Assembly: GCA_963802185.1 (NCBI GenBank)
Contig: CAWDHU010000015.1
Coordinates: forward strand, 657,781-721,780
Direction: 5' to 3'
DNA: 64,000 nucleotides
Source: an uncultured Bacteroidales bacterium
Lineage (GTDB): Bacteria; Bacteroidota; Bacteroidia; Bacteroidales; UBA4417
Part shown: piece by piece, positions 16,005-51,991 of the stretch
Numbering within the stretch: position 1 is the first letter of the stretch
Layout: every line of letters starts with the position of its first letter
Notes under the pieces: model-generated
What the model was told of the DNA's origin: nothing
The model's input: the letters and a program-made list of their open reading frames with translations, nothing else
The model's database searches: none
Position numbers and translations under genes: made by a program

Positions 16005-16179
16005 ATTCTTTTCAAATATGCAGAAGAATGAAACGAACGCTTGATTTTTGCAAGGGAACGCGGTTATGGGAGTGAGCCCAAAGGAAGATGGAATAGGAAG
16101 AACGAGGGCCGGAATCCGAAGAAAATATTTGAATAACGCATTTCGGGGCCGGAATTGTAGCTTCAAATTTTTTTACGTG

Positions 16180-17438
16180 ATGGGAATGGATAGAATCTTA
16201 GAAAAGAAAAAAGGCCTGAGACCAAGACAAATCATCTGGATAGCCGGAGGATTGGCATTCGCCTTTTTGTTGTACAAAGTAATTTTTGCTGAAACCGGCC
16301 CAACCTTCAGGGCTGAAAAAGACAAGCTAACCATCAGTACAGTGGAAGACGGCTTGTTTAACGACTACATCACAGTAATTGGCCAGGTTGAACCAATCAC
16401 TACTATTTATCTGGATGCTATCGAAAGTGGGCAGATTCAGGAACGTTTCATCGAAGAAGGATCGATGGTTCAGAAAGGCGACGTGATTCTTCGCCTCGAA
16501 AACCGCCAGTTGTATCAAACCATCCTGAACAGTGAAGCTGCTCTGGCCGAAAAGGAAAACTACCTGCGAAATACGCGCATCAGTTTCGAAACAGAGTTGA
16601 TACAGTCGCGCAAAAATATACTTGACAGCCGGTACCGCCTGAACCGTAAAAAACGTTCGTTCGAGCAGAACAAAGCTCTTTTCGACGAACAGCTGATTTC
16701 GAAAGAAGATTATCTGCAGGCCAAAGAAGATTACGAATATGAAGAGAATATGCTCGAAATCAATAAAGTGAAAGCCAAAAACGATTCACTGATCCGGTTG
16801 ACCTCGATGCAATCACTGGAAACCGACCTGGTAAAAATGCGTCAGATGTTGGTGCTGGTACGCGAACGACTCGATAACCTGAACGTGAAAGCTCCGGTTA
16901 ACGGTCAGCTTGGGAATGCTTGAATGCCGAAATCGGACAGCGAGTCAATGAAGGCCAGCGCATTGGACAAATTAACGTACTCGATAATTTTAAAATCAAT
17001 GCCCTGATTGATGAACATTACATCGACCGCGTGGTTCGGGACCTTCCGGCTACTTTAGACCGCAATGGGACCAATTTCAACCTGAAAGTCAGGAAAGTAT
17101 ATCCTGAAGTGCGCAATGGTCAATTTAAAATCGATGTGGTATTTGATGGCACAACACCCGATAATATCCGCACCGGCCAAAGCTACCACATCAAGCTTGA
17201 ACTGGGCGAATCGGGCAAAGCAGTATTACTGCCACGAGGCGGATTCTTCCAAAGTACCGGGGGTCAATGGGTGTTTGTGCTGAACGAAGACGGAACCGAG
17301 GCAACCAAACGCAATATCAGGATCGGCAAACAAAATCCACAGTATTACGAAGTACTTGAAGGCCTCAAAGCCGGTGAACAAGTCATCACTTCAGGGTACG
17401 AAATGTTTGGAACGAACGACAGGATTGTGTTGAAGTAG
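16180..17438 (+). pseudogene. HlyD/MacA-type periplasmic adaptor subunit, one frameshift near 16915-16925
   Basis: ORFs 16048..16923 and 16920..17438 together form one adaptor: TM anchor, coiled coil, and a C-terminal beta domain (PVNGQLGN / NAEIGQRVNEGQRIGQI). The likely start is MGMDRILEKKKG at 16180. Confidence 0.75.
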
Positions 17439-17591
17439 CAGAAAAGACAATGGGCAGAGAGTTCATAACTTGAATCCGGTAGTAGTAATGATAAGATAAA
17501 ACTTTGTATATTATTTTCATAACTTAAATACATTTAGCAAACATTAATTTGTAATTTTAACGAGATAAAACTTCTAATAAAAATAAAAACA

Positions 17592-18291
17592 ATGATCAGA
17601 ACAGTAAATTTAAACAAAGTGTTCCGCACCGAAGAGATTGAAACCAGTGCGTTGAACGAGGTGAACCTTCACATACAAAAGGGCGAATTTGTAGCCATCA
17701 TGGGACCTTCGGGTTGCGGCAAATCAACTTTACTAAATATTATCGGCCTGTTGGACAATCCAACTTCAGGTGAAGTATTATTTCGACAGTCAGGAAGTAG
17801 GCGATTTTAAAGAACGCAACCGCACTTTGCTCCGAAAAGGCAATATTGGCTTCGTGTTCCAGAGTTTTAACCTGATCGATGAGCGTAACGTGTATGAAAA
17901 TGTGGAACTTCCGCTCATCTACCTGAAATTGAGCGCTAAAGAGCGCAAGGAAATGGTCGAAAAAGTGCTGGAACGTATGAAAATAAGTCACCGGAAGAAA
18001 CACTTCCCGCAACAATTATCCGGAGGACAGCAGCAGCGTGTGGCCATTGCGCGTGCAGTGGTTGCCAATCCAAAACTGATTCTGGCCGATGAGCCAACCG
18101 GAAACCTCGATTCGAAAAACGGTCTGGAAGTGATGAAACTGCTCACGGAACTCAACCGCGAAGGAACCACCATCGTGATGGTGACACACTCCATGCACGA
18201 TTCAGAATTTGCACACCGGGTGGTGAATCTGTTCGACGGGCAAATTATTACTGAGGAAGTGAAAAAGCAGATGGGAGAAATGCTGGTCTAA
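17592..18291 (+). pseudogene. ABC transporter ATP-binding protein (MacB/LolD type), one frameshift near 17768-17772
   Basis: Walker [10 protein letters not shown] lies in ORF 17592..17810. The signature LSGGQQQRVAIARA and Walker B LILADEPTGNLD lie in ORF 17770..18291. Confidence 0.8.
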
Positions 18292-18362
18292 ATAGTCTTG
18301 AATGAACATTATACGTGATTAACTGAAGCCCAGGATTTTGAAAACCCAAACGATATCAGTCC

Positions 18363-20727
18363 ATGCAAAACATATTTAAATCAACTTACCGGAATTTCAT
18401 CAGGAAACCAACCACCAACCTTATCAACCTGATTGGGCTGGCAGTGAGTTTAGCCTTGGTTATCGTATTGTCGGTTTATTCGTACAGCGAACTGACCACC
18501 GACAATTACCATAAGAACGGCGATCGGGTTTATCTTTTCGCCGATATGAATGGTCAATTGCATATGCCTGCAATATTAAAAGACCAGATCGATCTGAATA
18601 TTCCGGAAGTCGAATCAACCGTAAGGATGGCCAGCACATGGGAAACTCCTGTATTCCAGGTCGGAGATCGTGAACCGATAACTTCGGATCTTGTTTTTGC
18701 AGACGAGGATTTCTTCCAACTATTCACCTACCGACCGGTTGAAGGCAATCTCGAAACTTCGTTGAAAGAACCCATGACCATTGTTCTTACCAAAACTCTT
18801 GGCCAAAAAACTTTTTGGAAACGAACCAGCACTGGGCAAAACGGTGAAGCTGAACAACGATAAAGAACTAACAGTTTCAGCAGTTATTAATGAGCCTGAA
18901 GCCAATTCAAGCCTGTCTTTCAGCGCGTTAACCTCAATTGCCACGCGCAAAATTGTTCTTCCCACTGATGGCGAGTTTACTGATTGGGGATGGTGCAGTT
19001 TCCTGACATTCACACTTTTAAAAGAAGGAACTAACCCGGATGAAACTGCGAAAAAGATCATCGCTCTTTTCCCGAAGAACGATCAGGAGAAATACTCTAA
19101 ATTGAAACTGAATCCATTTGGGAAAATCTATTTTTCCAAATTTGCACTTGGTGGAACCAATTATCTGCATTGTGGCGACAAACGAAAAGTAATGATCCTG
19201 ATGATGGTGGCAGCACTGGTACTGATGATTGCATTGGTCAATTTTATTAACATTTCTTCTTCACAATGGATGGAGAAAATCAGGCAAACAGGTGTTCAAA
19301 AGTGTTTGGCGCTGGTAATGTGAACATCCTCATAAATTCACTTTCCGAAGCCTTTATTCTGTTTTTGATGTCGCTTTTTTTTGCAATCCTGATCGTTCGG
19401 GCTCTATTCCCATTCATCAGTAGCATTACCGGAATTCAGTTCAATATTCAATTGCTTTACAAGCCTTCTTTCCTGATGGTTTCCATTGCCGTAACTTTTA
19501 TCCTTAGTATGGTTTTCAGTATTATTCCAGCCTTACGCATCTCCTCGTCGAAAGCAGTTGACAACCTGAAGAAAACAGTTGCAAGGGGTTCTAAAAATTC
19601 CTTTTCCCAGGGACTTCTGGTGACTACCCAATTTGTAATTGCTATTGTGCTAATCGCTTTTACCATTTTGGTTCAAAAGCAGGTTAACTTTGGAAGTAGC
19701 AAACTGGGATTTTATCAGAAAAACATAATAGGTATCAAGTTAACACCACAGTTGAACGGGAAAAAAGAGGTGCTCAAAAAGTTGCTACAGGACAAACCTA
19801 CTGTTACAGAAATCTCGTTTACTCAATATTACCCGGGAAACATGCTTTCGAACTGGAGAACAAATCAGGAAATAAACGGCGTGAGAAAAGAACTCAGTTT
19901 TGATACATTTAATGCTGATGCCAACTTCTGTTCAATGATAGGATTACAACTTATACAAGGACGCTTTTTCTTAGAAGACCTGGCTACCGACCAGCATAAA
20001 ATGATTGTGAATGAAAGCTTCCTTCGGGAAAACAAAATAGACAATCCGATTGGCGCTAAATTCATGATGGGCTTTGGTATGGATGCAGGCCTTTCCGAAA
20101 TAATCGGTGTAGTAAAAGATTTTCATTACAAAGCGGTCAACCAGCCCATCATAGCGTTGGTCATACAAAATGAACCGGATGCATCCTATTGCCTTGTCAA
20201 ACTGCAAACCAACGATTTCACTTCACTGCATACAACCATTCAGGATATCAAAAAAGTAACCAAAGACCTTTCTCCTTCTTTTCCGGTCGAAATCACCTTT
20301 TTCGATCAGGCTATTGAGAATATGTATAAATCGGAATTACAATTTCAACACACCTTTTCACTGTTTGCCGGAATGCGCTATTGTGATCTGTTGCATGGGA
20401 ATTTTCGCCATGTCGCTGTTTGCTTGTCAGCGCCGGATCAAGGAGATCGGCATTCGTAAGGTAAACGGAGCCCGTATTTCAGAAGTAATGACAATGCTGA
20501 ACCGCGACTTTGTGAAATGGGTTGCCATTGCCTTTGTAGTTGCCACGCCCATTGCCTGGTTCATCATGAACAAATGGCTCGAAAGTTTTGCCTACAAAAC
20601 TGACTTGAGTTGGTGGATTTTTGCCCTGGCTGGAATACTGGCCCTGGGAATTGCGCTATTGACGGTGAGCTGGCAAAGCTGGAAAGCAGCGACAAGGAAC
20701 CCGGTGGAAGTATTGAGGTATGAGTAG
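18363..20727 (+). pseudogene. MacB-like FtsX-domain ABC permease (~788 aa), three frameshifts
   Basis: Four overlapping ORFs (18363-18863, 18781-19323, 19266-20459, 20314-20727) read as one permease. The shifts are near 18800, 19298-19301 (an A4 run) and 20367-20382. The C-terminal FtsX motif is EIGIRKVNGA. Confidence 0.8.
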
Positions 20728-20750
20728 CCATTCAAATTAAAAATGAAATT

Positions 20751-23139
20751 ATGAAGAAAGTTAGAAATATTTTCAGGCATCTTATTCGCCGGGGATTGAC
20801 CACTTCGTTTGTGTTGATCAGTTTTACGTTGGCCTTTAGCTGTTGCATTTTAGTGTACCTTTTTGTTGCCGATGAGTTGTCATTCGATAAGCACAATGCA
20901 AATTTTGCCCATATCTACCGACTAAACCTACAGTCGAAAGACAAAACTTATAAGAGTTGTTCGTTCCCGGCTGTTTTCGAGGAAAAGTTCATCAAAATTC
21001 CGGGTATTGAAAAGTACGCAAGGCTTCAGTCCTATATGGGGGAAAATTTTATTTCGATTGATAATACAACTTTTACAGCAACCAGTTTCTTGTTTGCCGA
21101 TCCAGAAATCCTTGATATTCTTCAATTTGATTTCCTTATGGGCAACCCTAAAGAAGCTTTGGCGAAGCCGTTGAATGTTATAATCAGCCAATCGACTGCG
21201 CAAAAATATTTTGGCAATACCAATCCAATAGGAAAGATAATCAGGCAGGACGATCAGGATTTTACGGTTTCAGCAGTTGTGAAAGACCTGCCCAGGCAAT
21301 CGCATTTTACCATGAATTTCCTTGCCCCTGTGGCGAGCTATCAGATAAAAAACGACGACTTGCTTACAAAATGGTACATACAAGCTTTCCGTTTCTATTT
21401 GCTGATCCCGGATGGGGTAAACAAGAAGGAAGTAGAAACCCAATTAGCCAATCTTTATGCCGAAGGGAATGGAATTGACAAAAACAAGCGGGAGTTTGAT
21501 ATGTACCTGGAGCCTTTAAGTGATATTCATCTGAAGTCGGTTGGCACACGTTGGGATAACGCCATTAAAGGCGATATTCAAGTAGTTTATGGATTGTGTA
21601 TCGTTGCGTTGCTCATTCTGGGAATAGCCATTGCCAACTACATCAATATGCTGACCGCCGATTGCCGGCGAAAAGCAAAAGAAACCAGCATACAACGGGT
21701 GAATGGAGCTTCAGGATATAACATTATTGCCGATCAGGTTCTTGAAACATCGATTTTCCTTCTGTTTGCCTTTCTGTTGTCAATGGTATTAACTTTTCAG
21801 ATGTTGCCGGTTGTCAATAACTTAAGCGGCAAATTATTGTCGGTTAATTGGTCGGTGCTGATACCCGGCCTGGCTTTGCTTGCCACGTCCATCATTTTAT
21901 CTGCCATCTATCCAATACTATTCCTGAATTCCATAAAACCTGTTGAAGCCCTTAAAAACCAGATCAACATCATCAAGGTTAAAAGTCAGCAAAAACAGCA
22001 ATGGTTAAGAGGCGCTCTGGTTACCTTCCAATTGGCCATAGCCACCCTGTTAATTGCTTCAACTATTGTGATCAACAACCAGCTACAGTTGGTTATGAAT
22101 GCAAAAACAGGCTTCGATAAAGAAAATACCCTTATCGTTTACAACCCGTATACTGAAGGTATGAATGAACGTTATGATCTGTTCAGGCAAAAACTGAGCA
22201 ATGTGCCCATGATAAAAAGTATCGGTGTTGCACAAAATGCCCCTGGCAATACCATCAATAATTTTTCTCCTGCCTGGTTGCCTGATCAGAAAAATCAAAA
22301 AGCTGACCTTGGCCAAATTTCCGTTGACTACGATTTTCTGCAAACAATAGGTGCAAAATTTGTGGCTGGCCGCAATTTCGACATCAATGTTGCAAGCGAT
22401 AAAACAACAGGGATGATCATTAACCAATCAGCCGTTAGAGCGCTCAATTTAACCGATCCTATAGGTAAAAAAATTGTCGTCCAGAACAATGTTGATACTC
22501 CCAACAATGAACTTGAGGTAATTGGAGTGATCGAAGACATGCAATATTTCACCCTGCGTGAAGCTTCGAAACCAGTAATGTACTATATCAAGGATTGGGG
22601 CAGGTATGAAATTGCCTTGAAACTGGGCAGCGGTAATTATTCTGCAACATTAAAGCAGATTGAAACCATCTGGAAAGAAATAGCTCCTCAATGGCCAATT
22701 CAGCTACCAGTTTTTGGATGAAAGAATCAACAATAATTACAGATCGGAAATAAACACGGGAAAAATAATAACCGGGCTGTCAGGCATTTCCATTTTCCTT
22801 TCCATTCTGGGAATATTGGGTATGATCCTGATTACCATACAGCAACGCACCAAGGAGATTGGAATCCGCAAGGTGAATGGTGCCCAAATCTCCGAAGTAT
22901 TGATGATGCTGAACAAAGACTTTGTAAAATGGGTAGCCATTGCTTTTGTAATTGCCACGCCCATTGCGTGGTATGCTATGCACAAATGGCTCGAAAACTT
23001 TGCCTACAAAACTGAATTGAGCTGGTGGATTTTTGCCTTGGCAGGATTAATTGCATTGGGAATTTCATTGCTTACTGTGAGTTGGCAAAGTTGGAAAGCG
23101 GCCACAAGGAATCCGGTAGAGGCGTTGAGATATGAATAA
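20751..23139 (+). pseudogene. MacB-like FtsX-domain ABC permease paralog (~796 aa), one frameshift near 22701-22705
   Basis: ORFs 20751..22721 and 22714..23139 join as ...WPIQ/YQFLDERINNNY. The C-terminus is almost identical to that of the preceding paralog (EIGIRKVNGAQISEV...AATRNPVEALRYE). Confidence 0.8.
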
Positions 23140-23439: not shown

Positions 23440-23455
23440 TGGCATGAATCTGGCA
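23440..23455 (+). promoter_or_regulatory. Sigma-54 (-24/-12) promoter
   Basis: TGGCATGAATCTGGCA lies 80 nt upstream of ATG 23536. Confidence 0.6.
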
Positions 23456-23535
23456 TCCAGAAATACTAAAAGACAAAATCGAAACAAAATTTAGGTTTCA
23501 AAAAAATAACTTATTTATCTTTAACACTCAAAATC

Positions 23536-24657: not shown

Positions 24658-24673
24658 TGGCATGAATCTGGCA
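24658..24673 (+). promoter_or_regulatory. Sigma-54 (-24/-12) promoter
   Basis: TGGCATGAATCTGGCA lies 81 nt upstream of ATG 24755. Confidence 0.6.
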
Positions 24674-24754
24674 TCCTGAAATACTACAAGACAAAATGAA
24701 AACAAACAACAGGTTTAGAAAACAAAAACATATTAATCTTAAACCCTTAAAATC

Positions 24755-41132: not shown

Positions 41133-41867
41133 TCATAGTTTTAATCCAAATGCAAAGAATAGATTCAGATGACTAAAATTGATTTTGCTTTCAGGAAAAA
41201 TTTGTGAATTACCCCCAAAATTTTCAGATGTATAGGGCCCCATTTTGCAGTCAGTAGTTAAAAGGTAGTTTGCACCAATCTTACCAAATGTCCCGGTGCG
41301 GTCCCATAACTTTAAATTTAAACCGGTAAATAACCCTAAAGAGTATATAGTGTATTGTTCCTCTGATACCGGTGATCCTAACTCGTATTTATCACATGAA
41401 TTGACCATCACAGCAGGCCCAGCCTGAATTTCCAGGTAATCTTTCACTTCATAAGTATAAAAAGGAATTATAGAAATATTAGACAAATGGACATCCAAAT
41501 ATCCATTAACAGAAGAGTACCCCTTTACTTCACCAAAACCTGAGTAGTTTACCATGATTCCTAGTTGACTTCTTTTTGCTATTGGGTAACTAAAGTCAAT
41601 TTGTGTGGTAAAACCTGCACTTGAATAAATTGGATATGTAATATAATCTTTACTGTTTTTAAATATTTTTATCCAAACTTTCTCAGTATAACTATAGCCG
41701 TACTTTCTCATTAAATCCCCCATTTGCATTTGGGGACCTGAGCAGTTTATACCAATTCCGAATTCAACTTTCAATTTTTTGTCGGATTTGGCTTCCTGGG
41801 CTGATGCGGTAAACATCATACAGTTTATTGCAACAATCGCTAACAATAGCAAACAATGTGTTTTCAT
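41133..41867 (-). CDS. Outer-membrane beta-barrel protein (paralog of 46593..47354)
   Basis: Signal peptide ending ASAQ, beta-strand periodicity, and a C-terminal ...FFAFGLKL. Its 5' flank is homologous to the flank of the other OMP gene. Confidence 0.5.
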   Translation of the reverse strand: MKTHCLLLLAIVAINCMMFTASAQEAKSDKKLKVEFGIGINCSGPQMQMGDLMRKYGYSYTEKVWIKIFKNSKDYITYPIYSSAGFTTQIDFSYPIAKRSQLGIMVNYSGFGEVKGYSSVNGYLDVHLSNISIIPFYTYEVKDYLEIQAGPAVMVNSCDKYELGSPVSEEQYTIYSLGLFTGLNLKLWDRTGTFGKIGANYLLTTDCKMGPYTSENFGGNSQIFPESKINFSHLNLFFAFGLKL

Positions 41868-41910
41868 GGTATTTGGTTTTTAATGTTTGATTTTTACTTG
41901 TAAAAAGAAA

Positions 41911-41926
41911 TTCAACAACCAGGCCA
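41911..41926 (-). promoter_or_regulatory. Sigma-54-like -24/-12 element with a non-canonical -12 (TGGCCTGGTTGTTGAA on the minus strand)
   Basis: It is conserved with 47383..47398, lies ~48 nt upstream of ATG 41867, and sits exactly 65 nt from the palindrome. Confidence 0.35.
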
Positions 41927-41991
41927 GACGATGCAATTATCAGATATACAGATATATAATAGTTTTTTTGAGTGGGAAGCTGAAATTCTTT

Positions 41992-42008
41992 TGTAGCGTT
42001 TCGCTACA
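41992..42008. promoter_or_regulatory. Perfect palindrome TGTAGCG-N3-CGCTACA (candidate UAS), plus an extra half-site CGCTACA at 42025-42031
   Basis: tgtagcgtttcgctaca is identical to 47464..47480. Confidence 0.55.
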
Positions 42009-42089
42009 TTTTATTGTTTCAGATCGCTACACTTAAGTTTACTTCCCTAATAATTGATGCTTACCATATTTATGATATTGATTTGCAAA

Positions 42090-42410
42090 GCAGAAAACCG
42101 ATCGGATTTGTAATATATCGGATGTTAATAATGACTCAGATAGGGGTGTTTACAGCAGAGTTTGTATTGAAAAGACTATTTTGCAGAGTTTATATCTTGT
42201 CAAATCTTGTATTTATTCATTGATGCAATCAGAAACCAAATGTGATGTGATCCTGTTCAGCAGGAATATTGCCAGGAACATTATTCCTGTCAATGAAGGT
42301 CTGAAATGGATTGTGAAAATTCTGCAGGTTGATCCCGAAGCATGGGGAATAAAAATAACTGCTTATTGTAAAACAGGTGTAATCGTTGAGGTTATTAAAT
42401 GGAACTGAAT
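42090..42410 (+). pseudogene. Decayed relic of a sigma-54 response-regulator receiver domain
   Basis: It aligns in frame to codons 1-110 of RR 47561. The ATG is replaced by cag, the acidic pocket VVDDD has become DVNND, and the phospho-acceptor LLDMNF has become LFSRNI. It retains EGLKWIVKILQVDPE...ITAY and is truncated by a stop at 42408. Confidence 0.7.
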
Positions 42411-42482
42411 GCCTGGTTTGCCATGATAATCTTTGCCATACGAAGTAGGAGATTGAGTGCTCTTTCTGCCATTTTTTTACCT

Positions 42483-42686
42483 CTATGGTAAGTGATTCTT
42501 TCTGTATATCTGGACTCCCAGTATGATCGCAGAACTAATTACTACAATAAATAAAATTATCAAGCCAGTTAAATATCCATTGCCATATTTTGTAAGCCGG
42601 TGAACGTCCATTACTAATATCCGGACAATTTTGAAGGATAGAACTAAAGCAAAAAACAAGATTAGCGAAAAGATAGTTTTTTTCAT
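42483..42686 (-). CDS. Small two-TM membrane protein
   Basis: 67 aa with two hydrophobic helices. No homology is recognisable by eye. Confidence 0.3.
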   Translation of the reverse strand: MKKTIFSLILFFALVLSFKIVRILVMDVHRLTKYGNGYLTGLIILFIVVISSAIILGVQIYRKNHLP

Positions 42687-42727
42687 AACACTGATGGATT
42701 AGAAATATTGTTTTCAAAACATTCACA

Positions 42728-42765
42728 ATAGAGAGAGAGGAAATTTCTATTTCCTCTCTCTCTAT
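42728..42765 (-). terminator. 17-bp perfect hairpin downstream of the Bor-like gene
   Basis: atagagagagaggaaat-ttct-atttcctctctctctat. Confidence 0.55.
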
Positions 42766-42773
42766 CCAATTAA

Positions 42774-43079
42774 TTATTTTTGGACTGTGGTTGTCGTTGG
42801 AGTGTATATTCCAAAAGTTAAACCAGCTACCAATCCATTTACAAATGATTGACTGGTTTTTACACTATAATCTTTGGTTTCGCCAGCCAATTGTTTAGGG
42901 TTCGAAACTCCCACAGGGATTAAGCCAAAAAGGACATAACTATTCCATTTTTTAACTTCTTGGGTTCCTTTGGCCCCTTCACCGACTATGGTGGTATATG
43001 TATAACATGAAGTTAACATGCATGAGCATAAGATTGCTCCAATTAACAATTTGAAGATTTTTGTTTTCATTGTTGTCAT
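42774..43079 (-). CDS. Bor/Iss-family small lipoprotein
   Basis: Lipobox LTSC. The pattern CYTYTTIVG...KWN.Y.LFGLIP...Y.V.T.QSF.NGL...TFGIYTPTT is typical of the Bor family. Alternative start at 43070. Confidence 0.55.
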   Translation of the reverse strand: MTTMKTKIFKLLIGAILCSCMLTSCYTYTTIVGEGAKGTQEVKKWNSYVLFGLIPVGVSNPKQLAGETKDYSVKTSQSFVNGLVAGLTFGIYTPTTTTVQK

Positions 43080-43171
43080 ATGAAGTTTGATGTATATAAT
43101 TGTTTAAATTATTTTGAGTCATTTGCTTTTTCATCAGTAGTTATATCTGACAAATAGCATTTCTTTCAGTG

Positions 43172-44521
43172 TTAATTCAAATTAATATGGAGTTGGTTAT
43201 CAGCAGGAGGCAGGTCTGTCCAGATGCTATACAATGCCCCATCAAGTGGAGGCGGAAATGTACCAATTGTCTGAAGTAATTCTGGAGAGGGTGACTCATC
43301 TCCTGCGTAGTGTGCCATCCAGCCATCCCTGAAGTATGGTGCCAGATAGGATGCCGTTTCCTCATCTAATCCATATGAAGCACTTAAAACATATGCGAAA
43401 TACCCATCAAAGTGACTGCTCAGAAACACATTGGAATAGTCGGTGAAACTCATGCCTCCTGGTAAAGAATAGTTAATGGATGTAACCCAATTGGTGTTTA
43501 TGTCCATACTTTGCTTAGTGAGGGTAACCAGACGGTATGGGCTTGGAGGTGTAACCAGGGAGCCGGTTTCAATATCATATAAAACATCGCTGCCTTTCGT
43601 ACCCATCATGGTGATATCATTTGCATGATAATGACCAGTGAACATTATTTTCAGACCAGCAGCCATCAACCTTGGCCCATCCTCTAAATAATTATCTGTC
43701 ACATAACCGGGATCCAATTGTTGTTCCCCCATATAATGTTCAACAATTCCATGATGCATCATGCTGAGTACAGTTATGTTCTTTTGTTTGGCTTCCTGTA
43801 ATTTTCCTAAAATCCATGTCATGGTTTCCGGCTTGATTACTCCGGATACTAGGGCCAGGTTAGTATTGTCGTAATATTTGCAATCATCAATACCCAGAAT
43901 CCATAATCCGTTATAAGGCTGACTAATGTAAGTTAGCGAATTTGGATCTCGGCAGATGGCGTTTTTATACCCGAAATTGCCATAAATTTTAGGAAAATCA
44001 CTTACCTTGATACTGGGAGCTTTGCTTTCGTTATCTCCGTTATATATCCGGGCTTCAGGGTTATTGATATCATGATTTCCGGGTATTACAAATACTTTAA
44101 TCCCACAGTCGGCAAGTTGTTGAAGCATACTGGCTAAGGCTTCATGGCACACTTTTTCGCCATCCTTTGTCAGGTCGCCAGGAATTAGCACGATATCCGG
44201 TTTATCACGTTTTAATTGCGAAATCACTTTCCTTAAAATAGGATCACTGTATTCAAGTAATTTCGGGTCGGCCGCGAGGTAGGCCTGAAATGCTTCACCA
44301 TTTGCTGCACCATTCTTTAGCAGCGAAGGTGACATATAATGAATATCCGACACCACAGCAATTTTTATCTGGAGTGGTTTGCATTTCAACGCATTGTAGC
44401 CATCATCTGTTGCCTGTGGTGAATTATCTGCCAGGTAATCTTTCGTACAGGCTGCTACAACGAAGATCATTAGTATTAGAATCAAAAATTTCAGCTTTTT
44501 CATAAGTTTTGGTTTTAACAA
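43172..44521 (-). CDS. Calcineurin-like metallophosphoesterase lipoprotein
   Basis: Lipobox VVAAC. Motifs SDIHY, GDLTKDGE, GNHD, MMHHG and GHYHAN. Alternative start at 44503. Confidence 0.8.
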   Translation of the reverse strand: MLKPKLMKKLKFLILILMIFVVAACTKDYLADNSPQATDDGYNALKCKPLQIKIAVVSDIHYMSPSLLKNGAANGEAFQAYLAADPKLLEYSDPILRKVISQLKRDKPDIVLIPGDLTKDGEKVCHEALASMLQQLADCGIKVFVIPGNHDINNPEARIYNGDNESKAPSIKVSDFPKIYGNFGYKNAICRDPNSLTYISQPYNGLWILGIDDCKYYDNTNLALVSGVIKPETMTWILGKLQEAKQKNITVLSMMHHGIVEHYMGEQQLDPGYVTDNYLEDGPRLMAAGLKIMFTGHYHANDITMMGTKGSDVLYDIETGSLVTPPSPYRLVTLTKQSMDINTNWVTSINYSLPGGMSFTDYSNVFLSSHFDGYFAYVLSASYGLDEETASYLAPYFRDGWMAHYAGDESPSPELLQTIGTFPPPLDGALYSIWTDLPPADNQLHINLN

Positions 44522-44755
44522 TTAAACAGTGTATTAATGATTGATTCAACATTAGATAAAATGATATCGACTTGAAAATAGAAAGAAGTTAATTGACAAT
44601 TCGCTGAATAGCGTAAGGCTTCTAGAGGGTTTGCTCGTTAAGCCCTTGGAAGTGCATTCATGAGAAAATAGTGTAGAACCAGTAATCAAAAAAGTACACC
44701 AAGAGACGCTATGCATGTTATTCGGTAATATTCAATAATAGGTCCACTCAAACCA

Positions 44756-45589
44756 TTATACTGGACTGCCAACAAACAGAATATAATTTTCCTTTTTCTT
44801 GAGCATATTCGTATTGTAACCTGTATGCACAACAGCGTAAAACCTGTACCCTAAATAATTTATCCAGGTTTTGAAATTCTCACGCCTGACCCATTTTGAA
44901 CTGCCCTGGTATCCTTGTATAATATGGCTTGTGATATTCTCCCTGTACTCAATTTTTAAGCCTGAACCTGCAAACGATGAGATGTAATCTGACTCTTCCC
45001 AATGGTTAAAAGCCATCTTGTTTTTCCACCCTTTCGAAAGATACTTCCGGTTTGGAAATATATTCACAATGTCAGCAATTACAAATTCCCCTGATGGTTT
45101 CAGTACACGACTAACCTGTTTGAGGAACAATTCTTTATGTGGATAATGAAAAGCACTCTCGATGCAAATCAGCACATCGATTGAATGATCACTTATGGTA
45201 TCAAGCTTTTGTGCATCATCTACTTTGAAATCAATATTTTTCTGACCGGCTTTGTGTTGAAGTGCTATTGAAATATTATCCGGATTCAAATCAATTCCGG
45301 TAAGGTTCAGGGGCGATCTGGTATCAGAAATATACATGGACTGAATACCATTTCCACATCCTACTTCCAACACTTTTTTATTTGCTAGCCCTTCAATATG
45401 CGAGAGACAATAATTGGTAAGATTCTCCTGCCGCTTTTCAAGTGATTCAAAATCTTCCGTGTAGAAAGGATAGTGGAGCATCAGATGCTTCCCGAAAAGC
45501 TGGAGGTAGACATCATTGATCGATACATAATAATCCCGGACCGAATAGGCCGCTGAAATTAAACTTGGTCTTTTTACAATCTTTTTCAT
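44756..45589 (-). CDS. Class I SAM-dependent methyltransferase
   Basis: Motif I VLEVGCGNG, post-I GIDLN, and motif II/III DVLICIESAFHY...LKPSGEF. Confidence 0.8.
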   Translation of the reverse strand: MKKIVKRPSLISAAYSVRDYYVSINDVYLQLFGKHLMLHYPFYTEDFESLEKRQENLTNYCLSHIEGLANKKVLEVGCGNGIQSMYISDTRSPLNLTGIDLNPDNISIALQHKAGQKNIDFKVDDAQKLDTISDHSIDVLICIESAFHYPHKELFLKQVSRVLKPSGEFVIADIVNIFPNRKYLSKGWKNKMAFNHWEESDYISSFAGSGLKIEYRENITSHIIQGYQGSSKWVRRENFKTWINYLGYRFYAVVHTGYNTNMLKKKENYILFVGSPV

Positions 45590-45756
45590 TTTTTTAGAGT
45601 GTTTTGGTTAATGAAAGTAAATTTTGACTTTATAATTAACATTTAACAATTCCTAATTTGAATAATCAATGATATGGTTATCCTTATTTTATGAGTCAGA
45701 AATATATTTTTTCCGGACATCTGTATCTGCAAAACAATTAGGGAGAATTACAAGCT

Positions 45757-46608
45757 TTACTCATTAATACGTTTAAACTCGTACCCGATTTCACCATTAT
45801 TTATTCTTAAACTTAAATAGCCAGCATTACTCAGACCATCTTCCAGGGCATCAACTACTATATAAGTGGTAACTCCAAATACTTTAACATCCTTTTCGTG
45901 GTCATGCCCTGTAATAACCATATCGACATTATTCCTGGCAAATAAATCCATTAAAAAAACTAATTCTTCCTCCACCAGGTTGGTGCTCTCTGTTTTCCTG
46001 GGTCTGAACAGATTGATATGTGTAATTACAATGCATCGACGGAAGGAAGAACGCATAGTTTGCAGAATCTGAGTGAACCATTCAGTTTGTAGCTTTCCTA
46101 GAGTGCCTCCGCCTGTATCAAGACAGATAAACAGATCTGTACCTGAAGGTGTTATTACAGTAAAATAATAACTGGAAGAACCAAATCTGGAATAAAACTC
46201 TTCCCAGCCGTTATGCCACAGATCATGATTACCTGCGAGATAGAATGATCTCAGGGAATCATTCTTTGGGAAATGTTTCTCAAATTCATTATAGTCCTCA
46301 GCTTTACCACCATTAAGATCGCCATCAATTATAACCGCTGCCGGTTTAACGGATAGTGAAATGTTTAAGAACTTGTCAAGATTAATTGTAGTACCAACAT
46401 GAATATCAGCCATTGTTAAAATTGTATAGTCTTCCGATTCGACATTTATTTCGGTGTAAGGATGATTCATGTTCCATTCCATTGATTCATGGAAACGCTT
46501 ATCGACCGGTTCACTTGAGCTGGTGGGACCTTCTACTTTCCCACAGGCTGTTACCAATAAAGCCATAGCTGCAATAAGCAGCGATTTTTGATTTAATTGA
46601 CATTCCAT
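45757..46608 (-). CDS. Calcineurin-like metallophosphoesterase lipoprotein
   Basis: Lipobox LVTAC. Motifs ADIHVG, GDLNGG, GNHD, ITHIN and GHDHE. It overlaps the upstream OMP gene by 16 nt. Confidence 0.75.
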   Translation of the reverse strand: MECQLNQKSLLIAAMALLVTACGKVEGPTSSSEPVDKRFHESMEWNMNHPYTEINVESEDYTILTMADIHVGTTINLDKFLNISLSVKPAAVIIDGDLNGGKAEDYNEFEKHFPKNDSLRSFYLAGNHDLWHNGWEEFYSRFGSSSYYFTVITPSGTDLFICLDTGGGTLGKLQTEWFTQILQTMRSSFRRCIVITHINLFRPRKTESTNLVEEELVFLMDLFARNNVDMVITGHDHEKDVKVFGVTTYIVVDALEDGLSNAGYLSLRINNGEIGYEFKRINE

Positions 46609-47354
46609 TGTACACCTCCTCTGATTACGAAACCAAAATAATTTGAACAGATATTTGTTACCCCTGCATTCTTATACCATCCTTCAGCAAACAGGCAAAC
46701 CTGAGTACTTAATTTGTAGTAACCTTTCAGATTAACATAGGGGTTTGTTTCCTGGTTAATCATAAAATGATCAATGTTAGTCAAGGTTACTCCTGCATTC
46801 CATTTGTAGTCTGATGGTTTGATATTATAACCGAATGAATATAACAGGTTAAAATTCTCATGAATTTTTAATGCATCTTTTCCAATTTCATAGTCCTTCA
46901 ATGCTTTTCTCCTAAAACTATACGTCCTGGAGTTGGTACCGATCCGTAAGTCAAAATGATTGCTATTCATCGAGATAACAAAGCCATAATTTGTTTCCTG
47001 AAGAAGCCGGGAGGCACTTGTCCACAACCAGAATCCGTGTATACCAAGCAGAGTGTTTTTTATTTTGAACTCCCTTGAACCATCAATCCGATAACCTGAT
47101 AGAGTAATATTATTACCATTAAGCAGGTTAGTCTGAAGTCCTGCATTCAGCTTATAATTCCCTGATATGTACTGTCCAAGGAATGCAGACTTTATAAACA
47201 TGCCATCAGAAACAGAATTTCTGGCAACATCGGCATAAATAGTTAAACCAGGCTGTGCAACCACATTTACCCTGATTATAATAAGAATGATGATCAAAAC
47301 TCCTGTAATTTTATGCGAATGGCCTTGTGAACTCATGGGAACCAGGTTTTTCAT
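46593..47354 (-). CDS. Outer-membrane beta-barrel protein
   Basis: Start taken at ATG 47354 (MKNLVPMSS...), which aligns with the paralog start at 41867. It has a signal/TM segment and beta-strand periodicity. Confidence 0.5.
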   Translation of the reverse strand: MKNLVPMSSQGHSHKITGVLIIILIIIRVNVVAQPGLTIYADVARNSVSDGMFIKSAFLGQYISGNYKLNAGLQTNLLNGNNITLSGYRIDGSREFKIKNTLLGIHGFWLWTSASRLLQETNYGFVISMNSNHFDLRIGTNSRTYSFRRKALKDYEIGKDALKIHENFNLLYSFGYNIKPSDYKWNAGVTLTNIDHFMINQETNPYVNLKGYYKLSTQVCLFAEGWYKNAGVTNICSNYFGFVIRGGVQWNVN

Positions 47355-47382
47355 TGTTTGGTTTGTTGGTGCTAAATAGAAA

Positions 47383-47398
47383 TTCAACAATCAGACCA
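47383..47398 (-). promoter_or_regulatory. Sigma-54-like -24/-12 element with a non-canonical -12 (TGGTCTGATTGTTGAA on the minus strand)
   Basis: It is conserved with 41911..41926 and lies 65 nt from the palindrome. Confidence 0.35.
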
Positions 47399-47463
47399 CC
47401 TGATGTATATATCTAATATTCAGTCGTATAAGTGATTATGTGGATTGTTGTTAAAAATTTATT

Positions 47464-47480
47464 TGTAGCGTTTCGCTACA
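47464..47480. promoter_or_regulatory. Perfect palindrome TGTAGCG-N3-CGCTACA (candidate UAS/operator), plus a half-site at 47497-47503
   Basis: It lies in the divergent region between the OMP operon and the RR-HK operon. Confidence 0.55.
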
Positions 47481-47560
47481 TTTTTTTGTTTCAGATCGCT
47501 ACACTTATTATCTTTACACATCTTTGTGTCTTCGCATTTTATTATTATTAATTTGCAAAC

Positions 47561-48952
47561 ATGAAACCAGACCGGTTTTGCAATCTATTGGTTGTTGATG
47601 ATGACACAGATGTTCTGTTCACAGCAAAGCTTTTATTCAAAGGATTGTTTGGCAAGGTCGATACTCTGGCACGCCCTTCATTTATTCCTGATTGCCTTCG
47701 CGATTGCAAGTATGATCTGATCCTTCTCGATATGAATTTTACCCGTGGAATTACCTCGGGAAAAGAAGGACTCGAATGGCTGGCGAAAATATTGGAGATT
47801 GATCCTGAGGTCCGCGTAATCGTAACCACTGCTTACGGGGAAATAGATTTAGCTGTTCAGGCTATGAAACTTGGTGCGGTTGATTTTATCATCAAACCCT
47901 GGAATAAAGCACAACTGATTGCTACTATCAGGAATGTATTTGCAAAGGACAAAATAATCAGTGTATCCAATGGTCATAAAAGCAAACCCACTGATTCCCG
48001 TCATCATGCAAATAGCAGATACCCCGAAATTTTTACACGTTCGGCTAGCATGAAGCAGGTTATTGAAACCATAAAAACTGTTGCATCCACAGATGCCAAT
48101 ATACTGATATTAGGTGAAAATGGTACTGGTAAGGAGCTGGTAGCCTGGTCGTTGCATTCTCAATCATTACGAAAGCAACAAGCATTTGTGCATGTTGACT
48201 TAGGTGCTATTCCCGAAACTCTGTTCGAAGCTGAGTTATTCGGGCATATCCGAGGTGCTTTTACAGATGCAAAAGAAGACAGAACCGGAAGATTTGAAGC
48301 AGCTTCGGGTGGAACATTATTTCTTGACGAGATCGGTAACCTTAGTATGCCAATGCAGGCTAAACTTCTGACTGCTGTTCAAAACAGGGAAATTATTAAA
48401 ATTGGAACCAATCATCCTGTAAATATAAATGTGAGGTTGATTTCAGCAACCAATATGCCTTTATATCAAATGGCGGAATCATTTGAATTCAGGCAGGACT
48501 TGCTTTATCGCCTGAACACTGTTGAGATTATATTGCCTCCACTGAGAGACCGTAAAGAAGATATTGAACTCTTAGCAGACTTTTTTATAAAACAATTTTC
48601 AGAACAGTATAGTAAACAAGGAATTAGCATAAGTGAAGATGCCCTTGAAGTTATGAAACTATACAACTGGCCTGGGAATATCCGTGAGCTGGCTCACGTA
48701 ATCGAAAGGGCAATCATACTTAATAAAAGCGGAATCCTTAAGCCTGAAGATTTTACTTTGAAAGTAAAAGCACAAGCAGTACTGGTTCTTGATGAACCAA
48801 TCGTCAGCATAGGAGATTATGAGAGAAAAGTTATTTCAAATGCATTAAGTAAATATAACGGAAACCTTTCCAGGGCTGCTGACGATTTAGGAGTTGCCAG
48901 GACCACATTATACAGGAAGATATCACGGTTCGGACCGGAATTCTGGAAATAA
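47561..48952 (+). CDS. Sigma-54-dependent response regulator (REC-AAA+-Fis HTH)
   Basis: VVDDD...LLDMNF receiver, Walker A GENGTGKE, GAFTDA loop, and HTH AADDLGVARTTLYRKI. Confidence 0.9.
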   Translation: MKPDRFCNLLVVDDDTDVLFTAKLLFKGLFGKVDTLARPSFIPDCLRDCKYDLILLDMNFTRGITSGKEGLEWLAKILEIDPEVRVIVTTAYGEIDLAVQAMKLGAVDFIIKPWNKAQLIATIRNVFAKDKIISVSNGHKSKPTDSRHHANSRYPEIFTRSASMKQVIETIKTVASTDANILILGENGTGKELVAWSLHSQSLRKQQAFVHVDLGAIPETLFEAELFGHIRGAFTDAKEDRTGRFEAASGGTLFLDEIGNLSMPMQAKLLTAVQNREIIKIGTNHPVNINVRLISATNMPLYQMAESFEFRQDLLYRLNTVEIILPPLRDRKEDIELLADFFIKQFSEQYSKQGISISEDALEVMKLYNWPGNIRELAHVIERAIILNKSGILKPEDFTLKVKAQAVLVLDEPIVSIGDYERKVISNALSKYNGNLSRAADDLGVARTTLYRKISRFGPEFWK

Positions 48953-49015: not shown

Positions 49016-50431
49016 ATGAAGAAAGTATGGAATTATATTTCCAATCTCGGTCTAAGGGAAGATGAGGACGAGTTGATGCGGCGGTCAATTATGCTCAGTA
49101 ACAAGTTAAACTTTGTGATGTTGATTTTGACGGTATTGCTTTTTGCTACGGTTGTTCCTGTAATGCTTATTACCCATGATCCGATGTCATATGGTACACT
49201 CAGGGTTGCTATTCTATTAGGTTTCACTTTGCTGAACCTTGCAGTTGCCGGTTTTGGATTTCCTAAACTCAGCAGGCTATTACTTATATATATGCCTCCT
49301 GTTATTTTCCTGCTTGGTCCTACTTTTATAGGTTATGTTGAAGAAGAAAGCTATACCTATTATCCTTATATTCTTGTTTGTACATCAGTCATTCCCCAAC
49401 TGCTTCTGAATCCTAAAAAGGAAAAGTTGTTGTTCTGGTTGTCCATGATCTATTATTTTGCATTGATACTGAGTATTGATTGGTTAATGATTCACTTTGA
49501 AACAAACTATTTCCCGATTGTCGACAGAATAAATACTTTTTATCCTTTTTATAAAATTGCCCAGATTACACTTTTTATCTTCATTAATGCCTGTATATTT
49601 TATCTCCGGTTGCTTAATTTCCGTTTTGAAGAAGAGTTGCAACAGAAAAACCGGGAGTTGGACGAACAGAATCGGGAACTAATAATTCAAAAAAATGAAA
49701 TCGCGAGCCAGAAAGATGAACTTGTAAGCAAAGAAACAAGTACCTGGCAAAAACTGATAAATATTATTTCTCATGAAATAGTAAACTCTGCTATACCTAT
49801 CACAAACCTGGCAGGAATGAGCAGCCAGATGCTTGAAGACGAGTCGGGAACTGTGCTGAAGCCTTCCAGGATAGGGGAGGAGGCAATTGAGGATATTCAT
49901 CACGGGCTCAAGATAATCGAATCAAGAACCCGGGCCCTGGTAAATTTTGTAACATCTACTAAAAGCCTCACCCAGATTCCGAAACCAGTAATCAGGCAAA
50001 TAAGTGTCAGGGAGTTATTCGACAGGATTGCAATTCTGTTCCAGCCCAGGTTTAAAGATAAAGGGATTCAATATGAAAAACACATTACTCCTCCAGATCT
50101 TAAATTTGAAGCTGACCTGGAGCTTATTGAAAATGTGATAATAAATCTGATTCAAAATGCAATGGAGGCGATGGAAGAAATCGCAGATCCCAGGCTTTCA
50201 TTTGTGGCAGAAACATCCGAACTGAACCAGGTTCAGATATCCATAACCGACAATGGAAAAGGCATAAGTGCTGACGCTATGGAAAGGATTTTCCTTCCAT
50301 ACTATTCAACAAAACCAAATAATTCAGGTATAGGACTGAGTTTGTCACAGCAAATAATGTTGTTGCATAAAGCCCGGCTGGAGGTGATCTCACAACCTGG
50401 TGAGGGAGCCACCTTTACAATGATATTCTGA
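49016..50431 (+). CDS. Membrane sensor histidine kinase (multi-TM N-terminus, coiled coil, HisKA, HATPase)
   Basis: About 6 TM segments, H-box ISHEIVNSAIPITNL, N-box LIQNAMEA, and G-boxes DNGKGI and NSGIGLSL. Confidence 0.85.
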   Translation: MKKVWNYISNLGLREDEDELMRRSIMLSNKLNFVMLILTVLLFATVVPVMLITHDPMSYGTLRVAILLGFTLLNLAVAGFGFPKLSRLLLIYMPPVIFLLGPTFIGYVEEESYTYYPYILVCTSVIPQLLLNPKKEKLLFWLSMIYYFALILSIDWLMIHFETNYFPIVDRINTFYPFYKIAQITLFIFINACIFYLRLLNFRFEEELQQKNRELDEQNRELIIQKNEIASQKDELVSKETSTWQKLINIISHEIVNSAIPITNLAGMSSQMLEDESGTVLKPSRIGEEAIEDIHHGLKIIESRTRALVNFVTSTKSLTQIPKPVIRQISVRELFDRIAILFQPRFKDKGIQYEKHITPPDLKFEADLELIENVIINLIQNAMEAMEEIADPRLSFVAETSELNQVQISITDNGKGISADAMERIFLPYYSTKPNNSGIGLSLSQQIMLLHKARLEVISQPGEGATFTMIF

Positions 50432-50635: not shown

Positions 50636-51991
50636 ATGAAGAAAACTCTAACATTGGTTTTTGTTTTGTCCGGATTTATATTGTCGCAAATACCGGTATT
50701 GGCACAGGATGAAAAAACAAAAAAGGAAGCAAAAATACCCACCGGTTTTTCATTCGGCGCTCTGCCAACCGTTTCATACGATGCTGATATGGGATTTCAA
50801 TATGGTGGCCTGGTAAGTTTGTACGATTATGGCGATGGCAAATTGTATCCATCATATAAGCAAATGATGAAAGCGGAAATTTCGCGTTATACCAAGGGTT
50901 CAGGAACCAACCAATTGTTTTATGATGCCAAGAATCTTTTACCGAATCATTTACGGCTTACAGCCGATTTGAGTTATCTCACTGAAAGAGCACTTGATTT
51001 TTATGGGTTTAACGGCTATCAGAGTAGATATTCGCCGGAATTCATTGATGAAGGATCACCTGATTACATAACTCGGGTATTTTATCGTGAGTCCCGCAAA
51101 ATGTTTCGCTTTACTGTTGACCTTCAGGGACAATTATCAGGCGAACATCTTCACTGGCTGGTTGGTCTTGGTATTATGAATATGAAAACCGGCCGTGTTG
51201 ACTTTGCTGCTATCAATAAAAGGAAAGATGATAAAGATAAGCTGGTAGACACCACTACCCTTTTTGATGATTACGTTGCATGGGGCATCATCACTGAAGC
51301 TGAAAAAGACGGGGGAAGCGCCAATTTCGTAAAAACAGGCATTGTGTATGATACCCGCGACAACGAAGCCAATTCTATGAAAGGAATGTGGAGTGAAGCG
51401 CTTATAACATATGCCCCAAAATTCTTTTTCAACCCTGAATTTTCATATGCTAAATTGGTATTGATACACAGGCAGTATTTTACGATTATAAAGGACAAAC
51501 TTTCATTTGTTTACCGGCTTGGTTACCAGGGAACCATTGGTGGTAAGGCACCATTTTTTATGCAACCATATATGATGAGTTCTTATTCTGCCATCACAAA
51601 TCCTGATGGTCTTGGGGGAGGCAACTCATTACGGGGCATAATGCGCGACAGGATTGTAGGAGACGGCATTGCTTATGGAAATATAGAGTTACGATGGAAA
51701 TTTCTTAAAACCCATGTTGGGAAACAAAACCTGTATTTTGCATTAAATGGTTTCTCCGATTTCGGACTAGTTGTTCAACAAGTGAAGTTTGATAAATTAA
51801 AAATTAACGATGAAGATCAGGCAACTTATTTTGATTTCTCATTCGAAAAAGACAAGTTGCATCCCGGCATTGGAGCCGGATTAAGGATTGCTTTAAATGA
51901 AAACTTTATACTTGCTGCCGATTATGGTTTTGCTTTGAATAAACAGGATGGCATTAAAGGACTTTATGTAACTGTTGGAAATTTATTTTAG
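50636..51991 (+). CDS. Omp85/BamA-like outer-membrane protein without POTRA repeats
   Basis: Signal peptide and a C-terminal barrel with LRG...G.......E.R motifs (NSLRGIMRDRIVGDGIAYGNIELRW), ending in ...GNLF. Confidence 0.55.
   Translation: MKKTLTLVFVLSGFILSQIPVLAQDEKTKKEAKIPTGFSFGALPTVSYDADMGFQYGGLVSLYDYGDGKLYPSYKQMMKAEISRYTKGSGTNQLFYDAKNLLPNHLRLTADLSYLTERALDFYGFNGYQSRYSPEFIDEGSPDYITRVFYRESRKMFRFTVDLQGQLSGEHLHWLVGLGIMNMKTGRVDFAAINKRKDDKDKLVDTTTLFDDYVAWGIITEAEKDGGSANFVKTGIVYDTRDNEANSMKGMWSEALITYAPKFFFNPEFSYAKLVLIHRQYFTIIKDKLSFVYRLGYQGTIGGKAPFFMQPYMMSSYSAITNPDGLGGGNSLRGIMRDRIVGDGIAYGNIELRWKFLKTHVGKQNLYFALNGFSDFGLVVQQVKFDKLKINDEDQATYFDFSFEKDKLHPGIGAGLRIALNENFILAADYGFALNKQDGIKGLYVTVGNLF

Follow-up and report, generated by a model that had tools for sequence, protein, structure and literature searches.

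In the ZraSR and NtrBC systems, two adjacent dyads lie approximately 100–140 bp upstream of a −24/−12 promoter, and the same layout is found at the locus described here. The sigma-54 regulons and enhancer sites of Bacteroidota are almost uncharted. In Flavobacterium psychrophilum, transcription start sites (TSSs) mapped for sigma-54 (SM4) have typical −24/−12 elements and precede genes for envelope, chaperone and exported proteins (PMC9723704). We analysed a 64-kb stretch of DNA from an uncultured Bacteroidales bacterium (contig CAWDHU010000015.1), referred to below as the window. Its GC content of 38.5% and a SusC/D pair are Bacteroidota-like, and the loci closest to it come from metagenome-assembled genomes (MAGs) of Bacteroidales and Prolixibacteraceae. 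The window carries two copies of an intergenic element in which a pair of palindromic sites stands at a set distance from a −24/−12-like box. Copy 1 precedes the outer-membrane protein gene OMP1, and copy 2 lies between OMP2 and the divergent response regulator and histidine kinase genes RR2 and HK2. We consider it very likely that each copy is an enhancer-dependent, sigma-54-class promoter cassette of the RR2/HK2 two-component system. The parts of the two copies and the genes that adjoin them are:

41133..41867, minus strand: OMP1, signal peptide and predicted small β-barrel, behind copy 1
41911..41926, minus strand: copy 1 predicted promoter TGGCCTGGTTGTTGAA, −12 A at 41912; predicted TSS ~41900; OMP1 start codon 41867
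41934..41958, minus strand: copy 1 spacer element TA..CTG..TATC..TTG
41992..42008, unstranded: copy 1 site B, perfect palindrome identical to that of copy 2
42015..42031, unstranded: copy 1 site A, degenerate dyad, 17/17 identical to copy 2 site A
42093..42399, plus strand: decayed remnant of the 5′ end of an RR2-type gene, matching the receiver domain (REC; RR2 residues 2–103)
46593..47354, minus strand: OMP2, signal peptide and predicted 12-strand β-barrel, first gene behind copy 2
47383..47398, minus strand: copy 2 predicted promoter TGGTCTGATTGTTGAA (GG-N10-GA), −12 A at 47384; predicted TSS ~47372; OMP2 start codon 47354
47406..47430, minus strand: copy 2 spacer element TA-N5-CTG-N2-TATCtt-N4-tTA, at ~−58 to −34
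47464..47480, unstranded: copy 2 site B, perfect dyad, family core TGTAGC-N5-GCTACA, centre ~−100 from the predicted TSS
47487..47503, unstranded: copy 2 site A, degenerate 17-bp dyad, minus strand TGTAGCG-ATCT-GAAACA, holding the third CGCTACA
47509..47516, plus strand: TATCTTTA, Bacteroidetes sigma-A −7-like box (TAnnTTTG), putatively for the RR2-HK2 operon, directly beside site A
47561..48952, plus strand: RR2, NtrC-family enhancer-binding response regulator with REC, a sigma-54 AAA+ domain and HTH_8
49016..50431, plus strand: HK2, histidine kinase with five predicted N-terminal transmembrane helices

The palindrome TGTAGCG-TTT-CGCTACA (TGTAGCGTTTCGCTACA) is exact at 41992–42008 and 47464–47480. 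These are its only matches in the window even when two mismatches are allowed (0.08 expected by chance). Its heptamer CGCTACA occurs eight times in the window against 2.8 expected, with six of the eight inside the two site blocks. The third CGCTACA of each block lies 16 nt past the palindrome, at 42025–42031 and 47497–47503. An earlier reading of the sequence alone (hereafter the sequence-only reading) had taken it for a third half-site; site A is itself a degenerate 17-bp dyad, so that the heptamer forms the stronger half of a second binding site. The 40-nt blocks (41992–42031 and 47464–47503) have all the features first ascribed to them, except that they are not quite identical: they match at 39 of 40 positions and differ in the linker, by A versus T at 42014/47486. 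Sites A and B are a fixed 23 bp apart, start to start. Their centres, at ~−123 and ~−100 respectively, fall within the 80–150 bp upstream range of bacterial enhancer-binding protein sites, and RR2 is adjacent.

The domain composition of RR2 is that of the NtrC family: a receiver (Pfam E-value 3.8e-17), a sigma-54-interaction AAA+ domain (Sigma54_activat, 3.6e-63, with AAA_lid also matched) and a C-terminal HTH_8 (3.4e-11). No NCBIfam equivalog scored above its cut-off for RR2; the best were AtoC, ZraR and NtrC, all under their cut-offs. In HK2 the domain scan did not recognise a sensor domain.

The cassette was then surveyed in related genomes and metagenomes. Scanning genomes with the OMP2 protein family as anchor yielded 33 loci, of which 30 have OMP2 paired with the phosphoesterase gene that follows it in the window; the remaining three run out within ~100 nt of the match to OMP2. 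Eight of the 33 have RR2-HK2 upstream in divergent orientation, at an OMP2 identity of 46–73%, and all eight share one layout: site A as TGTAGCG[AT]TCTGA[AG][AT]CA, site B as TGTAGC-N5-GCTACA or one base off and 23 nt away start to start, a spacer of 64–65 nt, and the box TGGYCYG-N4-TTG[A/G]. Metagenome contigs were scanned with TGTAGC-N5-GCTACA-N{50,80}-TGGYCYG-N4-TTG, which left 31 spacer lengths open and put no constraint on the base that follows TTG. Together with the genome loci and the window this gave 97 cassettes, 80 of them unique, in Bacteroidales MAGs and metagenomes; hits to an unrelated, GC-rich repeat (~20) were left out, as were a few GC-rich chance matches. The spacing and the −12 base are the same in all 14 cassettes that were found through protein homology alone. 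Where the flanking sequence is long enough, most metagenome loci have RR2 beside the cassette, and the orphan cassettes, which have no neighbouring regulator gene, retain both sites together with the spacer element and the box.

The GC-rich repeat family has the form TGTAGCACTAYGCTACA ... GGCCAGAGGGCCTGT TGGTCTGCCTGTTG and occurs in many contigs from few samples, matching the pattern by a chance resemblance of motif (L034, L038, L043, L046, L047, L049, L051, L074, L083, L103, L107, L112, L116, L118, L124, L127, L139, L141 and L148).

Across the family, conservation of the palindrome extends over 6 + 6 positions rather than the 7 + 7 seen in the window, and the 6 + 6 dyad is perfect or one base off in the protein-anchored loci. 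Site A follows the consensus TGTAGC-N5-GAATCA (or, with one position relaxed, TGTAGC-N5-GAAWCA) at a constant offset. These features bear on whether the palindrome might be the hairpin of an intrinsic, possibly bidirectional, terminator rather than a protein-binding site. A consensus scan did pick out a terminator-like signal, TGTAGCGTTTCGCTACA with TTTTATTGTT or TTTTTTTGTT behind it, on the plus strand in both copies and on the minus strand in copy 2. The hairpin and T tract are thus present in the window, but no gene ends there on either strand, since the site lies between divergent start codons, and the tail is not conserved: a T-rich tail is found in just 18 of the 80 relatives, most of which have a 6-bp stem and a 5-nt A-rich loop. 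Neither a second dyad at a fixed 23-bp offset nor a promoter at a fixed 64–65 nt is a property of terminators, and we give this explanation almost no weight.

The sequence TGGYCTGRTTGTTGAA stands on the minus strand of both copies exactly 65 nt from the palindrome. The 21-nt segments quoted in the sequence-only reading are indeed present and span 41906–41926 and 47378–47398; the positions given for them, 41911 and 47383, mark the lowest coordinate of each 16-nt box. The reading of these boxes as −24/−12-like, with GA in place of the −12 GC, is borne out in both copies, and a purine at −12 extends to the whole family, whose box is TGGYCYG-N4-TTGR, with GG at −24 and GA or GG where GC would be expected. 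TGGYCYG is present in all protein-anchored cassettes as well as in both window copies, and the GG-N10-GR spacing is invariant in the protein-anchored loci (the metagenome pattern fixed that spacing). Among the 80 unique cassettes the −12 region reads TTGA in 66, TTGG in 14 and TTGC in none, so that of the canonical TTGCW doublet the G alone is kept. A position weight matrix (PWM) built from 51 catalogued sigma-54 promoters scored the copy 1 box at 15.0 bits (rank 3) and the copy 2 box at 8.0 bits (rank 36) among 127,964 window positions, and both scores are inside the range of the catalogued sites. In those 51 promoters the −12 doublet is GC in 43, GA in three, GT in three and TC in two, with GA in Dbac_2434, Dbac_1014 and Dbac_2789 and GT in pspA and pspG (PMC12316311); the −12 GA is a known minority variant and has precedent.

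Three other candidates for sigma-54 promoters were rejected. TGGACCTATTATTGAA (44731–44746, minus strand), upstream of the gene for a 443-residue phosphoesterase, has no upstream activating sequence (UAS) and is below threshold by both PWM and nhmmer, leaving only two cassettes in the window. TGGTTTCATGTTTGCA (47554–47569, minus strand) overlaps the RR2 start codon and lies upstream of the UAS. TGGCAGTATCTTTGCA (12405–12420) includes the Bacteroidetes sigma-A −7 box TATCTTTG and precedes a tmRNA gene, and is most likely an ordinary housekeeping promoter; the tmRNA gene (12441–12815, plus strand) encodes the tag peptide GNNYDYALAA.

The window also contains a second, paralogous system, which we call system 1:

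14413–15777: RR1, paralogous NtrC-type regulator, divergent from an efflux/ABC operon, about 47% identical to RR2
15988–16003, plus strand: system 1 target promoter TGGCATTATTCTGGCA, canonical GG-N10-GC

The system 1 promoter is kept as TGGCAY-N5-TGGCA, with GC at −12, in three orthologous loci (L150–L152). The −12 purine appears to be specific to the RR2 regulon rather than to the clade, because the RR1 promoter keeps GC both in the window and in these orthologues. Canonical TGGCAY-N5-YTGCW sites number only three in 870 kb of related loci, too few for a clade consensus. The upstream sites of system 1 are of the TGTCAA/TTGTCAAT type and are conserved in the orthologues, in keeping with the earlier observation that the RR2 palindrome differs from the site used by the other activator in the same genome. 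Such distinct and separately conserved sites fit the suggestion that the two activators may be insulated from each other.

Several points weigh against assigning the cassettes to sigma-54. The defining −12 C is missing in every one of the 80 cassettes, which lowers the consensus score, and the copy 2 box lies at approximately the 4th percentile of the catalogued promoters. The L1-loop motif of RR2 is GAFTDA rather than the canonical GAFTGA, with F and T kept and the fifth residue changed. RR1 has the same motif, though its promoter is canonical. The 64-kb window contains no rpoN gene. Because the metagenome pattern fixed TGTAGC/GCTACA, TGGYCYG and TTG, the survey underestimates the variability of the family at those positions. 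Finally, classical integration host factor (IHF), which the spacer element described below calls to mind, is chiefly proteobacterial. With regard to the activator, GAFTDA is found in RR2 (residues 225–237), in RR1 (residues 222–234) and in all 52 homologues recovered (L001–L147), and looks like a clade-wide variant of the sigma-54-contact motif. Since both regulators have it, we ruled out the L1 variant as the cause of the −12 purine.

The missing C and the low score of copy 2 would also be expected if the TGGYCYG-N4-TTGR box were the operator of some other protein or the target of another sigma factor, with RR2 working in some other way. We regard this as unlikely. GG and G are exactly 10 nt apart and ~75 nt downstream of the sites of an AAA+ activator, which is a sigma-54 signature; GA or GT at −12 occurs among the catalogued promoters named above; and RR2 has a sigma-54 interaction domain. 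Between the box and the ATG there is no sigma-70-like or TAnnTTTG box, and over the region as a whole a sigma-70-type promoter scan and Rfam (E ≤ 1) found nothing.

A spacer of 65 nt separates palindrome and box in both copies (41927–41991 and 47399–47463), as the sequence-only reading had noted. The accompanying claim that the two spacers have diverged almost completely does not hold: they align without gaps and are identical at 36 of 65 positions (55%). The two copies are in fact one duplicated segment of ~390 nt that aligns without gaps throughout, and equal spacing in the two copies therefore proves nothing by itself. The proposal of a functional constraint on spacing survives on other grounds, namely the survey. 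With 50–80 nt allowed, the 80 unique cassettes have spacers of 62 nt (1), 63 nt (7), 64 nt (56) and 65 nt (16). Lengths outside the module vary, the distance from box to ATG being 9–155 nt (mostly ~30) and insertions and deletions occurring on the regulator side. In the six loci that have two cassettes (L033, L053, L054, L096, L153 and the window), the spacer length is always equal within the locus, at 64/64 or 65/65. Since the 62–65-nt spacer and the −12 purine recur across the whole set, both appear to be properties of the family and not accidents of the duplication in the window.

The duplication raises the question of whether copy 1 is merely a functionless, decaying relic, which shares its spacing and motifs with copy 2 through recent and neutral segmental duplication. 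The gap-free alignment, the spacers that are still 55% identical and the regulator pseudogene in copy 1 all point that way. The remnant is 65% identical to RR2 in nucleotides and 31% in amino acids; it is in frame and has lost the start codon and D57, the phospho-acceptor aspartate. Against this, the site block is 39/40 identical and the box 19/21, against the ~65% background of the pseudogene flank (P ~9e-7 and ~0.009 respectively), whereas the regulator coding sequence and the promoter box on its side have decayed. The copy 1 box even has the better score of the two, and the constancy of spacing in the 80 cassettes is not accounted for by a single duplication. These comparisons indicate that the site block and box have been kept in copy 1 by selection.

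Further evidence is provided by the homologues of OMP1. In L065 OMP1 lies behind a cassette, beside a 79%-identical RR2. Its homologues are found beside RR2 in L154 and on the P0205 contig, behind a second cassette in L153, and inside the OMP2 operon in L155. This association with RR2 or with cassettes argues that copy 1 is functional, and we consider its being a mere relic very improbable. On our preferred reading, that of a functional cassette, copy 1 goes back to a duplication that took in the 5′ end of RR2 and the intergenic region, after which the cassette parts were kept while the regulator remnant and its promoter box decayed. As to the remnant itself, its 102 codons are in frame with no stop although the catalytic residues are lost, which may reflect chance or a young remnant.

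The UAS copies within a locus are 43/44 identical in the window and 44/44 in L153. In L153 the two cassettes are near-identical in the UAS too, which fits the relic explanation to the extent that it points to a recent duplication, or to gene conversion, in that lineage, as in the window. General within-genome concerted evolution of UAS copies was rejected, given that identity within loci ranges from 34 to 44 of 44 and is high just in the lineage of the window and L153.

Within the spacer, the element TA-N5-CTG-N2-TATCtt-N4-tTA stands out, its columns reaching up to ~1.8 bits at fixed positions compared with ~0.2–0.6 in neighbouring columns. It resembles the IHF consensus WATCAA-N4-TTR. The IHF-type pattern WATCAANNNNTTR is approached by TATCtt-N4-tTA at a fixed position between UAS and promoter, and the consensus is matched exactly in L007. 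The element is probably a site that is bent or is bent by a protein.

From the sequence anatomy, the conservation, the genes found with the cassettes and the domain make-up of the proteins, we infer the following mechanism. Phosphorylated RR2 dimers would bind the two 17-bp dyads 23 bp apart, strongly at B and more weakly at A, and assemble into an active AAA+ ring. The element at ~−58 to −34, bent or bent by a protein, would bring the ring to RNA polymerase–sigma-54 held as a closed complex on TGGYCYG-N4-TTGR, and ATP hydrolysis would open the promoter, with transcription starting ~12 nt downstream of the box. Copy 2 would drive OMP2, the lipoprotein metallophosphoesterase gene and probably the genes behind, and copy 1 would drive OMP1. 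The rigid geometry of 64 ± 1 bp would reflect a need for sites, bend and promoter to lie on fixed helical faces. The closed complex is secured at the −12 region by Region I and the HTH, and it is here too that the L1 loops of the activator come close to the DNA (PMC7057263, PMC3844500); it could be, speculatively, that the −12 purine tunes basal silence or activator dependence.

On the regulator side of site A there is a conserved GTAAAGATAAT, the reverse complement of ATTATCTTTAC, which fits the Bacteroidetes sigma-A −7 consensus TAnnTTTG (PMC9723704). This box averages 9.1/10 matches in regulator-adjacent cassettes compared with 6.0/10 in orphan cassettes, including copy 1 (P = 5e-9). It is kept where the regulator gene is present and lost where it is absent, and we therefore conclude that it belongs to the RR2-HK2 promoter and is not part of the enhancer. 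The box abuts site A, which suggests that bound RR2 probably autoregulates the RR2-HK2 operon.

The cassettes precede at least 10 unrelated gene families, which are mostly envelope-related. OMP2 is behind 36 cassettes, with RR2 mostly adjacent, and a YegS/DAGK-type lipid kinase is behind 18, together with RR2. The 443-residue phosphoesterase family follows seven cassettes in other genomes, five of the seven without an adjacent RR2; in all, metallophosphoesterases of two types are found behind cassettes. Smaller groups are a lipoprotein family of 260–280 residues (six cassettes), an OMP_b-brl protein (four) and a 393-residue protein of unknown type (three); an SDR protein, a DUF2062 protein and an Lcl_C protein are also preceded by cassettes. 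A more far-reaching reading is that these are a distinct, hard-wired class of sigma-54 cassette, in which a purine in place of the near-universal −12 C alters the fork-junction “lock” on the closed complex and the 64 ± 1 bp geometry is part of a portable module of ~125 bp. We advance this tentatively and think it rather doubtful. Equally doubtful is its evolutionary side, in which repeated copying of the module, sometimes along with a stub of the regulator gene and sometimes alone, would have brought unrelated envelope genes into the regulon in Bacteroidales.

The sequence-only reading placed the promoters ahead of two outer-membrane protein genes, and this agrees with our models, in which both products appear as outer-membrane β-barrels, with one cassette upstream of each. 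OMP2 was modelled with a predicted local distance difference test (pLDDT) score of 81.5, its nearest structures being KdgM, NanC and OmpG. OMP1 resembles the small barrels of the OmpA-TM/OmpW/Ail type (pLDDT 79.9). No homology between OMP1 and OMP2 was detected by BLASTP or hhalign. The other genes around the cassettes are:

42774–43079, minus strand: Bor-like lipoprotein, last of the same-strand run 42774..45589
43172–44503, minus strand: second metallophosphoesterase (443 residues), behind the methyltransferase
44756–45589, minus strand: methyltransferase, downstream of the OMP2-phosphoesterase pair
45757..46608, minus strand: lipoprotein metallophosphoesterase, overlapping the end of OMP2
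50636..51991, plus strand: Omp85-family outer-membrane protein, 3′ of HK2; the order RR2-HK2-Omp85 is kept in L001

The genes at 42774..45589 are probably in one transcription unit with OMP2. In L154 the Bor and metallophosphoesterase genes are linked.

Some further observations concern system 1. Identical sigma-54-like boxes, TGGCATGAATCTGGCAT, occur on the plus strand at 23440–23456 and 24658–24674 and both reach 13.5 bits on the catalogue PWM; sequences of the TGTCA...TTGACA type lie ~60–80 nt upstream of the first. Both are probably further promoters of the RR1 regulon. In the efflux/ABC cluster (16048–23139) several genes are split into adjacent or overlapping open reading frames, including the membrane-fusion protein (16048–16923 and 16920–17438), the ABC ATPase (17592–17810 and 17770–18291) and the FtsX permeases, which are fragmented. 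These are frameshifts, arising from assembly error or pseudogenisation. Between RR1 and the gene for the membrane-fusion protein, the orthologous RR1 loci have a TolC-like outer-membrane efflux protein (OEP) gene that is absent from the window.

For a system that is widespread in environmental Bacteroidales, the analysis supplies a candidate recognition site, TGTAGC-N5-GCTACA occurring twice at an interval of 23 bp, as well as a model of the promoter. It also yields a candidate regulon, in which porin-like outer-membrane proteins are joined by lipoprotein phosphoesterases, by a lipid kinase and by further envelope genes. The 80 natural variants reveal which parts are constrained, namely the sites, one spacer element, the spacing and the −12 purine. 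The conserved non-C base at −12, in a genome that also has a canonical GC promoter, provides a means of testing the role of the −12 C in vivo, and the family would be an example of regulon growth through copying of a small cassette.

Comparison with known systems places the cassette as real but fairly ordinary: the enhancer-dependent promoter, as we consider well supported, of an uncharacterised NtrC-type two-component system. Nothing specific to the palindrome or to the regulon came up in literature searches. The features that set it apart are the invariant −12 purine, the rigid geometry with its spacer element, and the spread by duplication before many envelope genes. The PspF/pspA system of E. 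coli, which is sigma-54-dependent and IHF-assisted, is alike in that divergent intergenic activator sites overlap the activator's own housekeeping-sigma promoter, and in having an IHF site between UAS and promoter where an IHF-like element is found here; pspA and pspG also have a non-GC −12 (TTGT). PspF autoregulation and the details of IHF at pspA were reportedly worked out by Jovanovic, Model and colleagues. Unlike RR2, PspF lacks a receiver domain, and its control is exerted by PspA instead of a kinase; its UAS sequence is unrelated, and it is the RR2 cassette that has the −12 purine and copies before many genes.

ZraSR/zraP and NtrBC/glnAp2 share with the RR2 system a REC-AAA+-HTH_8 regulator and an envelope target gene divergent from the regulator operon. 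They differ in their recognition sequences, to which TGTAGC-N5-GCTACA is unrelated, and in that NtrC sites act over variable distances whereas the RR2 cassette is fixed at 64 ± 1 bp; the RR2 operon, moreover, has an apparent sigma-A-type box rather than a second sigma-54 promoter, and its regulator has GAFTDA in L1. The sigma-54 promoters of F. psychrophilum belong to the same phylum and have typical −24/−12 elements, while the RR2 family never has C at −12; no cognate enhancer sites were defined in that work, unlike here. System 1 also has an NtrC-type regulator with GAFTDA and a divergent layout; it differs in its TGTCAA/TTGTCAAT sites and in its GC at −12.

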